Sequence record: OK331996.1
Source: Escherichia phage vB_EcoM-G157lw
Direction: 5' to 3' (one strand)
Length of the DNA: 64,000 nucleotides
A model generated the notes under the pieces. That model ran no database searches. It had not been told where the DNA came from and saw only the letters and a program-made list of their open reading frames with translations. Numbering within the stretch: the stretch's first letter is position 1; each line of letters starts with the position of its first letter. The position numbers were made by a program, and so were the translations under genes. Of this stretch, positions 15,126-16,146 are shown piece after piece.

Positions 15126-15198
15126 TGGGAATTAGCCAAGTTGGTAAGGCACTGGATTTTGATTCCAGGATGCAAAGGTTCGAGTCCTTTATTCCCAG
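15126..15198 (+). tRNA. tRNA-Gln (anticodon UUG)
   Basis: manual cloverleaf: acceptor TGGGAAT/ATTCCCA, anticodon loop TTTTGAT, T-loop GGTTCGAGTCC. Confidence 0.8.
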
Positions 15199-15199
15199 C

Positions 15200-15286
15200 G
15201 CGAGAATGGTCAAATTGGTAAAGGCACAGCACTTAAAATGCTGCGGAATGATTTCCTTGTGGGTTCGAGTCCCACTTCTCGCACCA
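15200..15286 (+). tRNA. tRNA-Leu (anticodon UAA), class II
   Basis: acceptor GCGAGAA/TTCTCGC, loop CTTAAAA, long variable arm, encoded CCA. Confidence 0.8.
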
Positions 15287-15291
15287 AATTT

Positions 15292-15365
15292 GCGGATATC
15301 GTATAATGGTATTACCTCAGACTTCCAATCTGATGATGTGAGTTCGATTCTCATTATCCGCTCCA
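15292..15365 (+). tRNA. tRNA-Gly (anticodon UCC)
   Basis: acceptor GCGGATA/TATCCGC, loop CTTCCAA, encoded CCA. Confidence 0.8.
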
Positions 15366-15375
15366 ATTTAATTTA

Positions 15376-15449
15376 CTCCGTGTAGCTCAGTTTGGTAGAG
15401 CGCCTGATTTGGGATCAGGAGGTCCAAGGTTCAAATCCTTGTATGGAGA
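15376..15449 (+). tRNA. tRNA-Pro (anticodon UGG)
   Basis: anticodon stem CCTGA/TCAGG, loop TTTGGGA, T-loop GGTTCAAATCC. Confidence 0.75.
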
Positions 15450-15451
15450 CT

Positions 15452-15541
15452 GGAGGCGTGGCAGAGTGGTTTAATGCACCGGTCTTGAAAACCGGCAGTC
15501 GCTCCGGCGACTCATAGGTTCAAATCCTATCGCCTCCGCCA
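15452..15541 (+). tRNA. tRNA-Ser (anticodon UGA), class II
   Basis: acceptor GGAGGCG/CGCCTCC, loop CTTGAAA, long variable arm, CCA. Confidence 0.8.
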
Positions 15542-15546
15542 GTTTT

Positions 15547-15622
15547 GCTGATTTAGCTCAGTAGGTAGAGCAACTCACTTGTAATGAGAAGGTCGGCGGT
15601 TCGATTCCGTCAATCAGCACCA
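15547..15622 (+). tRNA. tRNA-Thr (anticodon UGU)
   Basis: acceptor GCTGATT/AATCAGC, loop CTTGTAA, CCA. Confidence 0.8.
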
Positions 15623-15623
15623 A

Positions 15624-15698
15624 GGCCCTGTAGCTGGAAGGTTCAAGCAAGCGACTCATAATCGCCAGATGGTGGTTCAATTCCACCCAGGGCCACCA
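15624..15698 (+). tRNA. tRNA with CAU anticodon (Ile2 lysidine-type, or Met)
   Basis: acceptor GGCCCTG/CAGGGCC, loop CTCATAA, CCA; T4 tRNA-Ile position. Confidence 0.75.
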
Positions 15699-15710
15699 AA
15701 TTATGAATTA

Positions 15711-15797
15711 GGGGAGTTATCCCGTAGAGGTAGCGGTGTGGACTGTAAATCCATTGTCATTGCGACTCGGGTGGTTCGACTCCATCACTCCCCACCA
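15711..15797 (+). tRNA. tRNA-Tyr (anticodon GUA), class II
   Basis: acceptor GGGGAGT/ACTCCCC, loop CTGTAAA, long variable arm, CCA. Confidence 0.75.
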
Positions 15798-15801
15798 ATT
15801 T

Positions 15802-15876
15802 GGATGTGTAGCTCAATGGCAGAGCGATCGCCTGTTAAGCGATTGGTTATAGGTTCGAATCCTATCACGTCCGCCA
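15802..15876 (+). tRNA. tRNA-Asn (anticodon GUU)
   Basis: anticodon stem ATCGC/GCGAT, loop CTGTTAA, T-loop GGTTCGAATCC, CCA. Confidence 0.75.
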
Positions 15877-15990
15877 AATTTGTGACAGTTGTCACATTAA
15901 TATCTACTTGACGCGATTATCGGGGTTGAACTGATCACTCTTCTCTTAATTTCGTGTGAAGACATCTTGATTGTTGGAGTAGGTATTAAT

Positions 15991-16066
15991 GTGGCCGTAG
16001 TTCAGTTGGTAGAACTCGAGATTGTGATTCTCGTAGTCATGGGTTCGACTCCCATCGGTCACCCCA
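15991..16066 (+). tRNA. tRNA-His (anticodon GUG)
   Basis: anticodon stem CGAGA/TCTCG, loop TTGTGAT, T-loop GGTTCGACTCC, CCA. Confidence 0.75.
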
Positions 16067-16070
16067 ATTA

Positions 16071-16146
16071 CGGGGCATAGCTCAGAAGGAAGAGCAAGGA
16101 CCTTCTAAGTCCTAGGTCGTAGGTTCGATCCCTACTGCCTCGACCA
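16071..16146 (+). tRNA. tRNA-Arg (anticodon UCU)
   Basis: anticodon stem AGGAC/GTCCT, loop CTTCTAA, T-loop GGTTCGATCC, CCA. Confidence 0.8.

Follow-up and report, generated by a model that had tools for sequence, protein, structure and literature searches.

The eleven tRNA genes between positions 15126 and 16146 of the DNA analysed here, a stretch of 64,000 nt from Escherichia phage vB_EcoM-G157lw (OK331996.1; hereafter, the window), belong to what we regard with confidence as an ordinary tRNA and stable-RNA operon of Tequatrovirus, of the type carried by wV7, SH7, slur02 and G50. The array of eleven is already known, being annotated or published for hundreds of T4-like phages.

Composition and relatives of the operon

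Analysis of the window with ARAGORN returned exactly eleven tRNA genes, all on the plus strand, in the order Gln, Leu, Gly, Pro, Ser, Thr, CAU, Tyr, Asn, His and Arg. At the gathering threshold (29 bits for RF00005), Rfam identified the same eleven as tRNA. Ten of these score 59–74 bits (E 1e-10 to 1e-14); tRNA-Tyr is marginal at 30.2 bits against the cut-off of 29, as expected from its long variable arm. Since the eleven are also the sole Rfam matches at gathering threshold in the whole 64-kb window, chance is excluded. A relaxed search (E ≤ 1) over 14000–18000 added only sub-threshold noise (sX4, YrlA, Plastid-ycf2 and, for Tyr, tRNA-Sec), and gave no known family for the Asn–His spacer, rnaC or rnaD. 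The first-pass annotation had named eleven tRNAs with these anticodons and this order, Tyr, Asn and His among them, and both programs bear it out.

The array opens with tRNA-Gln (UUG, 15126–15199, 67.4 bits), tRNA-Leu (UAA, 15200–15286), tRNA-Gly (UCC, 15292–15365), tRNA-Pro (UGG, 15376–15450), tRNA-Ser (UGA, 15452–15541) and tRNA-Thr (UGU, 15547–15622). The CAU tRNA (15624–15698), tRNA-Tyr (GUA, 15711–15797) and tRNA-Asn (GUU, 15802–15876, 74.1 bits) follow, and tRNA-His (GUG, 15991–16066, 65.1 bits) and tRNA-Arg (UCU, 16071–16146) complete it. Intergenic gaps are, in order, 0, 5, 10, 1, 5, 1, 12, 4, 114 and 4 nt. The placing of His and Arg in a second subcluster behind the gap of 114 nt stands. 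CCA is encoded in nine of the eleven genes, in agreement with the earlier statement that most have it; Gln and Pro are the two without. In tRNA-Ser the encoded end is CCA(G), and T2L likewise encodes it (PMC2330249).

While 15126–16146 correctly delimits the tRNAs, the operon itself goes on. Downstream of tRNA-Arg on the same strand are an ORF of 116 amino acids (16163–16513; phrog_3355, function unassigned) and homologues of the T4 stable RNAs rnaD (species 2, 16513–16629) and rnaC (species 1, 16636–16774), the latter with a tRNA-like T-arm, GGTTCGAATCC. A hairpin followed by a T-run at 16825–16848, resembling an intrinsic terminator, probably closes the transcription unit. The only other copy of array sequence in the window is a 36-nt terminator repeat at 17377–17412.

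The window is a Tequatrovirus sequence approximately 99% identical to PinkRuby, G50, wV7 and slur02, and the annotations of Tequatrovirus genomes at this level of identity list the same tRNA names. At least 80% of the segment 14900–16400 is covered in 258 records, with 97–99% identity over 1.5 kb to many of them. Phage wV7 (NC_019505; 98.3% over the segment) has the same eleven tRNAs, anticodons and order, and Shigella phage SH7 (KX828711; 97.6%) has the same order; the description of SH7 from 2017 lists the identical eleven anticodons (PMC5238451). Eleven tRNAs are also reported for fPS-65 (PMC7917993). The flanks of wV7 and SH7 match those of the window, with a trna.2-like ORF upstream and an RB69ORF150c-like ORF downstream, and the differences are point differences only, such as position 4 of tRNA-His (A in wV7, G here). 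The window thus shares with these phages the anticodons and their order, the synteny and an array free of any homing endonuclease gene.

Public annotations of the CAU tRNA are split between Met and Ile. Comparison with E. coli tRNAs gives 77% identity to ileX, 70% to metT and only 63–67% to the tRNA-Ile of T4 and T6. The CAU tRNA shares with ileX the entire anticodon stem-loop, GCGACTCATAATCGC, and its acceptor stem (GGCCCTG/CAGGGCC) contains both C4-G69 and C5-G68, the pairs that serve as TilS determinants. tRNA-Ile2 has a CAU anticodon that is modified with lysidine and reads AUA. Being ileX-like in these respects, the CAU tRNA is predicted to be a tRNA-Ile2 that reads AUA.

Codon supply and host defences

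The array would be transcribed as a polycistronic precursor, from which host RNase P and 3' trimming would yield mature tRNAs; for Gln and Pro, CCA would have to be added after transcription. The products may supplement the host pool for codons that the phage over-uses (A-ending codons, TAT and AAT), and may in addition cushion the infection against host defences that deplete tRNAs. The genome has a G+C content of 35%. In 86 ORFs of the window, TTA, GGA, TCA, ACA, ATA and AGA are used 1.9–4.5 times as often as in E. coli, CAA and CCA 1.5 times, TAT 2.3 times and AAT 2.4 times; the corresponding values for His are 1.14 for CAT, 0.37 for CAC and about 0.8 for both codons together. Tyr and Asn fit codon demand well, and His is unexplained by it, so that the codon-usage comparison proposed at first pass supports two of the three genes it was meant for.

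It is possible, although doubtful in our judgement, that Tyr, Asn and His persist chiefly as spares against host defence, replacing or out-titrating host tRNAs that have been cleaved. All three have GUN anticodons of the queuosine family cut by colicin E5-type anticodon nucleases; colicin E5 targets four tRNA families, and the extra tRNAs are exactly three of the four. tRNA-Tyr is moreover a target of Septu and of retron-Eco7 PtuAB, and the lack of a codon-based explanation for His favours the same reading. Against it, codon demand accounts well for Tyr and Asn, and all three have the same anticodon loops as their counterparts in E. coli K-12, which rules out escape mutations in the loops and leaves evasion by loop mutation unsupported. 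In the literature consulted on the topic, no defence system was found to attack either tRNA-Asn or tRNA-His in cells infected by T-even phages.

For tRNA-Tyr there are experiments in T6. Overexpression or amplification of T6 tRNA-Tyr rescues infection from Septu, T4, without a tRNA-Tyr, cannot escape, and T6 becomes more sensitive to Septu when its whole tRNA-rich region, with several tRNAs, is deleted (Chihara et al. 2026, PMC13096335). As the T6 tRNA-Tyr is itself cleaved by Septu (PMC13096335), its protection is a matter of dosage and not of resistance, which also weighs against the defence-based reading. It is only for this tRNA of T6 and this defence system that buffering is experimentally backed; the copy in the window, 98% identical to that of T6 (and 72% to E. 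coli tyrT), might by analogy behave in the same way.

Allelic difference from T4 and the predicted SegB target

The RefSeq record of T4 (NC_000866) holds eight tRNAs, in the order Gln, Leu, Gly, Pro, Ser, Thr, Ile, [segB], Arg, and none for Tyr, Asn or His, so the first-pass annotation was right about T4. The operon has the same genomic position and orientation in both phages, between the trna.2 ORF and e.8, and the flanks align at 93–96%. tRNA-Leu (87/87), tRNA-Gly (74/74) and tRNA-Pro are identical to their T4 counterparts and tRNA-Thr nearly so (73/76), whereas tRNA-Gln matches at 65 of 74 positions and has a different anticodon stem-loop. tRNA-Ser is likewise identical to its T4 counterpart but for the CCA, which the T4 gene does not encode. 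The rnaD and rnaC homologues are 93–98% identical to those of T4 (110/118 and 136/139, respectively).

Homology to T4 stops at 15643, 20 nt into the CAU tRNA, and resumes at 16513, the start of rnaD. The first seven genes therefore follow the T4 order, as had been claimed, but homology ends within the seventh. Between these points the window has the ileX-like tRNA-Ile2, Tyr, Asn, a structured leader RNA, His, an argU-like Arg and the 116-residue ORF; the corresponding T4 segment has its own type of Ile, segB and its own type of Arg. In T4, segB stands in place of Tyr, Asn, leader and His, and no ORF separates Arg from rnaD. The CAU tRNA matches T4 tRNA-Ile at 47 of 75 positions and tRNA-Arg its T4 namesake at 48 of 76 (approximately 63%), which makes both of them different alleles; tRNA-Arg is 76% identical to E. 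coli argU and only 63–69% to the T4 and T6 genes. As judged from these alignments, the difference between the window and T4 is allelic. Comparison with T4 segB, a GIY-YIG homing endonuclease gene, revealed no segB-like sequence between 15643 and 16513, nor did a simple GIY...YIG motif search of the window, itself a weak test, find a segB-like gene. The phrog_3355 protein is the sole non-tRNA ORF of at least 40 amino acids near the array.

Other T-even phages combine these elements differently. T6 (NC_054907; seven tRNAs annotated) is a mosaic with T4-type Ile, Tyr, segB directly after Tyr, and T4-type Arg, but neither Asn nor His. T2L, RB1 and RB3 have no segB, and in T2L tRNA-Met, Tyr, Asn and Arg together with two ORFs replace the segB region of T4 (Brok-Volchanskaya et al. 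2008, PMC2330249). These phages resemble the window in lacking segB, in their additional 'Met' (CAU), Tyr and Asn genes, in a non-T4 Arg and in the CCAG after tRNA-Ser. By its published description, T2L differs in having no tRNA-His and in the presence of two ORFs, trna.1 and trna.2, within the region.

The preferred cut site of SegB lies inside the tRNA-Asn of phages without segB, and consists of an 11-bp core, GGTTCRANTCC, followed by CCAR (PMC2330249). Homing converts the tRNA region of such phages to the T4 type, replacing about 1250 bp; cleavage and conversion in mixed infection have been demonstrated for T2L only (PMC2330249). The tRNA-Asn of the window has the core GGTTCGAATCC at 15852, continuing as ...GTCCGCCAAATT (CCAA), and is predicted to be the preferred SegB cut site, which would make the window a SegB-sensitive recipient allele. 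The core occurs also in eight other tRNAs of the array and in rnaC.

Since SegB turns regions without segB into the T4 type, the eight-gene state of T4 is more likely the altered, derived one, a view that draws on SegB biology and on record counts and not on phylogeny. The opposite course, in which a T4-like set of eight tRNAs was ancestral and this lineage gained Tyr and Asn at its end as well as a His-Arg subcluster, appears unlikely. It agrees with the eight tRNAs of T4, with some Tequatroviruses in which Tyr, Asn and Arg are present without His, and with REP2, which has the leader and no tRNA-His. The leader and tRNA-His also appear to be portable as a unit, adjoining tRNA-Gln in other genera and tRNA-Asn here, so that His could have come by recombination. 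However, the T4 site is held by a mobile element that the 2008 study regards as acquired 'quite recently' (PMC2330249), SegB homing has removed the Met/Tyr/Asn/Arg block of T2L experimentally (PMC2330249), and the genes for CAU and Arg are alleles distinct from those of T4 rather than additions. Furthermore, the right half of the array as in the window (at least 80% coverage) was found in 186 records of the phage collection, and the Ile-segB-Arg arrangement of T4 in 126, counts that carry the sampling bias of the database. As an expansion the array is nothing unusual, the same state being annotated in wV7, published for SH7 and the commoner of the two in these records; both 'expanded' and, for Tyr and Asn, 'appended' reflect a T4-centred view of a position that segB occupies in T4.

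tRNA-His and its structured leader

tRNA-His has the GUG anticodon and C73 discriminator of a bacterial tRNA-His, with CCA encoded, and is 80% identical to E. coli hisR. The hisR gene starts with GG; position −1 of the phage tRNA (15990) is T. Pairing of G-1 with C73 is the main determinant for bacterial HisRS (PMC9976931). The same T was present in every homologue examined and in T5 and mycobacteriophage Dandelion. As encoded, therefore, the tRNA lacks a G-1, which E. coli HisRS would normally require, and its efficiency of charging would be in doubt. Searches of the available literature on G-1 in phage tRNA-His and on T5 RNAIII gave nothing relevant. Decay of Tyr, His or another extra gene into a non-canonical form that does not work in translation is very improbable: the Tyr score close to cut-off and the missing G-1 of His would fit, but the two genes are 95–99% identical across about 200 Tequatrovirus records, tRNA-His is retained in many genera, with stem substitutions that compensate one another, the T6 tRNA-Tyr (98% identical) shows both expression and biological activity (PMC13096335), and the T5 tRNA-His, also with U at −1, is annotated as an effective suppressor in an anticodon-swapped version.

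The gap that separates Asn from His, whose length of 114 nt had been given correctly, is not inert: 95 nt of it (15896–15990, plus strand) form a conserved structured leader. It is closed by a 14-bp helix (15896–15909 with 15977–15990) supported by covariation, and it ends on position −1 of tRNA-His. Its interior is not conserved. Among T4-like phages (Tevenvirinae), at least nine of the lineages sampled have the leader, always abutting a tRNA-His for which no G-1 is encoded; in CIP9 only an 11-bp hairpin is kept, and Aeromonas phage Aeh1 has a shorter hairpin of about 7 bp in the same place. A covariance model of the leader (R1) scores 94 bits on the plus strand of the window, with no match reported on the minus strand, and at most 32 bits on the minus strand of other loci. 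No Rfam family matches 15877–15990 at gathering threshold or at E ≤ 1, a sigma-70 scan of the same interval found no promoter (the overall count being that expected from shuffled sequence), and no published description of this RNA was found.

Several simpler identities were considered for the element. A degenerate tRNA is ruled out, as neither ARAGORN nor Rfam finds one. An inverted repeat acting at the DNA level is rejected because of the many U·G pairs, which work on one strand only, and the strand-specific score of the model. A role as an RNase III site is weakened by the short hairpins of CIP9 and Aeh1, and a known self-cleaving ribozyme is unlikely given the unconserved interior and lack of an Rfam match.

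A similar layout is seen in T5 (NC_005859), where RNAIII, an RNA of approximately 100 nt closed by a 12-bp terminal helix (14 bp here), abuts the 5' end of a tRNA-His that likewise has U at −1. The annotation of T5 describes RNAIII as a stable RNA that has been observed; the leader of the T4-like phages is a candidate for one. No similarity between the two was detected: the leader model gave no match at the T5 locus at E ≤ 10, and pairwise alignment is not meaningful.

Tentatively, and at somewhat short of even odds, the leader may be an RNA gene in its own right, the twelfth of the array, or else a module dedicated to processing, and is passed on in company with a tRNA-His that lacks G-1. It may be freed by RNase P as a stable small RNA; alternatively, it may control 5' maturation, and hence charging, of this atypical tRNA.

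Separately, a perfect palindrome at 15881–15896, TGTGAcagttgTCACA, could fold into a small hairpin. The two half-sites are the same as the core of the CRP consensus and also mimic both acceptor strands of tRNA-His; the palindrome as a whole is restricted to Tequatrovirus. One candidate reading is a class II CRP-type promoter built on this TGTGA-N6-TCACA palindrome.

As it was first stated, the finding of eleven tRNAs adds nothing new to an array already annotated and described in print; segB homing has been known as the cause of the T4 difference since 2008, and defence evasion by tRNA-Tyr was shown in 2026. What is corrected is the frame of reference: T4 is not the reference state for the tRNA content of Tequatrovirus, and the window has the allele predicted to be sensitive to SegB. 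The leader with its tRNA-His lacking G-1 is the one item possibly worth further work. If the leader is a functional RNA, it would bear on the role of the stable RNAs in the tRNA clusters of T-even phages and T5, and on how a tRNA-His without the main HisRS determinant is put to use in an E. coli host.

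Gene content, distribution and downstream operon

The whole window was scanned with ARAGORN, which returned eleven tRNA genes and no others, all on the + strand (15126–16146), in the order Gln, Leu, Gly, Pro, Ser, Thr, CAU, Tyr, Asn, His and Arg. Coordinates and anticodons agree exactly with those of the first-pass annotation. Rfam at curated thresholds, independent of ARAGORN, called all eleven as tRNA, ten of them at 59–74 bits and tRNA-Tyr at 30.2 bits against a cut-off of 29 bits, as is typical where the variable arm is long. The intergenic gaps are, in gene order, 0, 5, 10, 1, 5, 1, 12, 4, 114 and 4 nt, and CCA is encoded in 9/11 genes (all except Gln and Pro); the gene order, mostly encoded CCA and 114-nt Asn–His spacer originally described are thus borne out, and the observation of an 11-tRNA array is confirmed in full. 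A hairpin (GGGCTCTtgcttgAGAGCC) at 15094–15110, shortly 5' of the first gene (Gln), may serve in 5' processing of the array.

The array is already known. A query of 1.5 kb around it matched 1082 phage records, and the best matches, at 98–99% identity, were the Tequatrovirus phages PinkRuby, FriedrichMiescher, G50, REP4, slur02/04 and wV7; the same tRNA names are annotated in the best-matching Tequatrovirus genomes. The RefSeq annotation of wV7 has the same 11 genes in the same order, flanked by a Trna.2-like ORF and an RB69ORF150c-like ORF. The eleven anticodons reported for SH7 are those of the window (PMC5238451), and the two are 97.6% identical around the array. For fPS-65, 11 tRNAs are reported versus 8 in its sister phages (PMC7917993).

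Downstream of tRNA-Arg on the + strand lie an ORF of 116 amino acids (16163–16513; phrog_3355, function not assigned), homologues of the T4 stable RNAs rnaD (16513–16629; 110/118, 93% identical) and rnaC (16636–16774; 136/139, 98%) and, 3' of rnaC, a terminator-like hairpin (16825–16848). Both stable RNA homologues fall outside the coordinates of the first-pass annotation. T4 has Arg, rnaD and rnaC side by side, whereas in the window the 116-amino acid ORF separates Arg from rnaD. The 36-nt terminator hairpin (AGCCCcAGCCGAAAGGTTGGGGCTTTTT; 16822–16857) has a second copy with 94% identity at 17377–17412, about 555 nt downstream and past the next ORF.

Alternative cassettes in the window and in T4

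The T4 record holds eight tRNAs and lacks Tyr, Asn and His, in line with the first-pass annotation; its order is Gln, Leu, Gly, Pro, Ser, Thr, Ile, segB and Arg, followed by rnaD and rnaC, with segB encoding a GIY-YIG homing endonuclease. The window is 93–96% identical to T4 on either side of a divergent segment, homology ending at 15643, 20 nt into the CAU tRNA gene, and restarting at 16513, the 5' end of rnaD. The tRNAs for Leu, Gly, Pro and Ser do not differ from those of T4 and tRNA-Thr matches at 73/76 positions, whereas the CAU tRNA (15624–15698) matches T4 tRNA-Ile at 47/75 and the Arg-UCU tRNA (16071–16146) matches T4 tRNA-Arg at 48/76 (both ~63%). From this gene-by-gene comparison, the window and T4 hold alternative cassettes of ~850 bp rather than a base array and additions. 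The view of an expanded array with Tyr and Asn appended, and its implied novelty, is therefore not sustained, the same array being annotated and published elsewhere.

The tRNA-Gln genes (15126–15199 in the window) match at 65/74 positions, with differences confined to the anticodon arm: the stem is CTGGA/TCCAG in the window and TAGCA/TGCTA in T4, and loop positions 32/38 are U/U and C/C, respectively. This corresponds to an allelic swap limited to the anticodon stem-loop.

T6 is a mosaic, with T4-type Ile, Tyr, segB and T4-type Arg. segB is absent from T2L, RB1 and RB3, and T2L has tRNA-Met, Tyr, Asn and Arg with two ORFs in place of the T4 segB region (PMC2330249). SegB targets the T-arm motif GGTTCRANTCC and cuts preferentially in tRNA-Asn; in T4 x T2L crosses, it replaces ~1250 bp of T2L sequence in this region at close to 100% efficiency, and the authors take T4 to have gained segB recently (PMC2330249). 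The tRNA-Asn of the window contains GGTTCGAATCC followed by CCAA, and the CCAG of tRNA-Ser is present in the window, as in T2L, and not in T4 (T2L and T4 as reported in PMC2330249). The window-type right half (15644–16160) was found at >=80% coverage in 186 records and the T4 Ile-segB-Arg segment in 126, so in the database the 11-gene layout is no rarer than that of T4. From SegB biology and these record counts, we infer that the 8-gene state of T4 is most likely derived, and the window is predicted to be a SegB-sensitive allele.

Identity and role of the tRNAs

In comparison to E. coli K-12 tRNA genes, the CAU tRNA shares 77% identity with ileX and 70% with metT; its anticodon stem-loop is that of ileX without difference, and C4-G69 and C5-G68 are present. 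By sequence it is best read as a tRNA-Ile2 that would read AUA, and the 'Met' label comes from predictors taking the anticodon literally. Identities are 72% to tyrT for tRNA-Tyr (98% to T6 tRNA-Tyr), 63% to asnT for tRNA-Asn, 80% to hisR for tRNA-His and 76% to argU for the Arg-UCU tRNA, which is closer to argU than to T4 tRNA-Arg.

Codon usage was calculated from 86 window ORFs (17,886 codons; window G+C 35%) against E. coli frequencies. Relative to these, the codons of the eight T4-type tRNAs are enriched 1.5–4.5-fold (AGA 4.5, TCA 2.6, ATA 2.5, GGA 2.4, ACA 2.2, TTA 1.9, CAA and CCA 1.5). The proposed link to codon usage extends to Tyr (TAT 2.3-fold; all Tyr codons ~1.7) and Asn (AAT 2.4-fold; all Asn ~1.4) but fails for His, which shows no enrichment in the window ORFs (CAT 1.14-fold, CAC 0.37, total ~0.8 of E. 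coli). Codon demand thus does not explain tRNA-His.

A second role is suggested by Septu, which cleaves tRNA-Tyr in its variable loop (PMC13096335). Infection is rescued by T6 tRNA-Tyr, either overexpressed or amplified through SegB-driven tandem duplication; a T6 mutant without the tRNA-rich region is more sensitive, and T4, which lacks tRNA-Tyr, does not escape (PMC13096335). Since Septu cleaves the phage tRNA-Tyr too (PMC13096335), protection is through dosage. The published idea that loop mutations let phage tRNAs evade anticodon nucleases (PMC10264068) is unsupported for Tyr, Asn and His, as their 7-nt anticodon loops are the same as in E. coli K-12. A mixed role is the best account of the array: codon supply accounts for most genes, and buffering against tRNA depletion is demonstrated, by proxy, for Tyr. 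tRNA-His is explained by neither.

A structured leader 5' of a tRNA-His without G-1

The spacer and tRNA-His match T4-like phages of other genera at 79–91% identity over 174–180 nt; there the leader, a conserved, structured 95-nt RNA element at 15896–15990 in the window, lies between tRNA-Gln and tRNA-His. Eleven distinct sequences were aligned, from Tequatrovirus, Karamvirus, Jiaodavirus and related Klebsiella phages, Gelderlandvirus, Winklervirus and Moon/Merlin-like contigs. The interior is variable, with indels, and is closed by a 14-bp helix (15896–15909 with 15977–15990) in which all 154 sequence-by-pair cells hold standard pairs and, in four of the pairs, both partners change. The helix covariation score of 0.377 compares with 0.07–0.15 for slid partner columns and was reached by 0/500 shuffles. 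Because many pairs are U.G, the helix works in + strand RNA only. The window leader folds at -30.7 kcal/mol (z = -2.8); co-folded with tRNA-His, the helix can gain 5 bp in the acceptor 5' strand, an extension limited to three genera.

A covariance model scores 94 bits on the + strand of the window, with no match reported on the - strand, and at most 32 bits on the - strand of other loci. It finds a single copy per phage, always immediately 5' of tRNA-His, and recovers the untrained REP2 and Kanagawavirus CIP9; no match was obtained in T4, T6, T5, Aeh1 or the mycobacteriophage locus. Overall, of the Tevenvirinae lineages sampled, at least nine have the leader directly before tRNA-His. Kagamiyamavirus EcS1 carries it in complete form. 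In CIP9 only a bare 11-bp hairpin is left, in which one more A-U pair has become G-C by compensatory change, and a 7-bp hairpin stands at the corresponding position in Aeromonas phage Aeh1. No Rfam family matches the leader region of the window, and no description was found in the literature searched, which covered only part of the older T-even and T5 work.

A perfect palindrome, TGTGA-cagttg-TCACA (15881–15896), is the same as the CRP consensus core, its half-sites also resembling the 5' and 3' acceptor strands of tRNA-His. We estimate a chance expectation of ~0.06 per 64 kb, and the complete palindrome occurs only in Tequatrovirus. PG7 (1388–1500 of its locus) and ABTNLPp2 (288–400 of its locus), of different genera, share a conserved non-coding stretch of ~110 nt (AATTAGAGTGTAACGGTAA...GACTCTCACTCTTC) between tRNA-Gln and the His leader, which the window lacks. 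A homing endonuclease gene lies immediately 3' of tRNA-His in EnC15 (631–975 of its locus), and REP2 retains the leader with nearly all of tRNA-His gone, which together mark the neighbourhood as a recombination hot spot.

The main bacterial HisRS determinants are G-1 and C73, the former usually gene-encoded (PMC9976931), as it is in E. coli hisR. In contrast, position -1 (15990) is T in the window and all homologues examined, with C73 retained, so that the phage tRNA-His gene does not supply the main determinant for E. coli HisRS. T is also found at -1 in the tRNA-His of mycobacteriophage Dandelion, whose acceptor stem is the same as that of the window, and in that of T5, annotated as 78 nt with the U included. 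The T5 gene adjoins a 106-nt 'RNAIII, stable RNA with unknown functions' with a 12-bp closing helix; the leader model detected no homology to RNAIII in T5, and the two are alike in architecture alone.

The remaining lead is this structured leader and its association with a tRNA-His lacking encoded G-1: the leader may be released as a small stable RNA by RNase P cleavage at the tRNA-His 5' end, or may modulate that cut.
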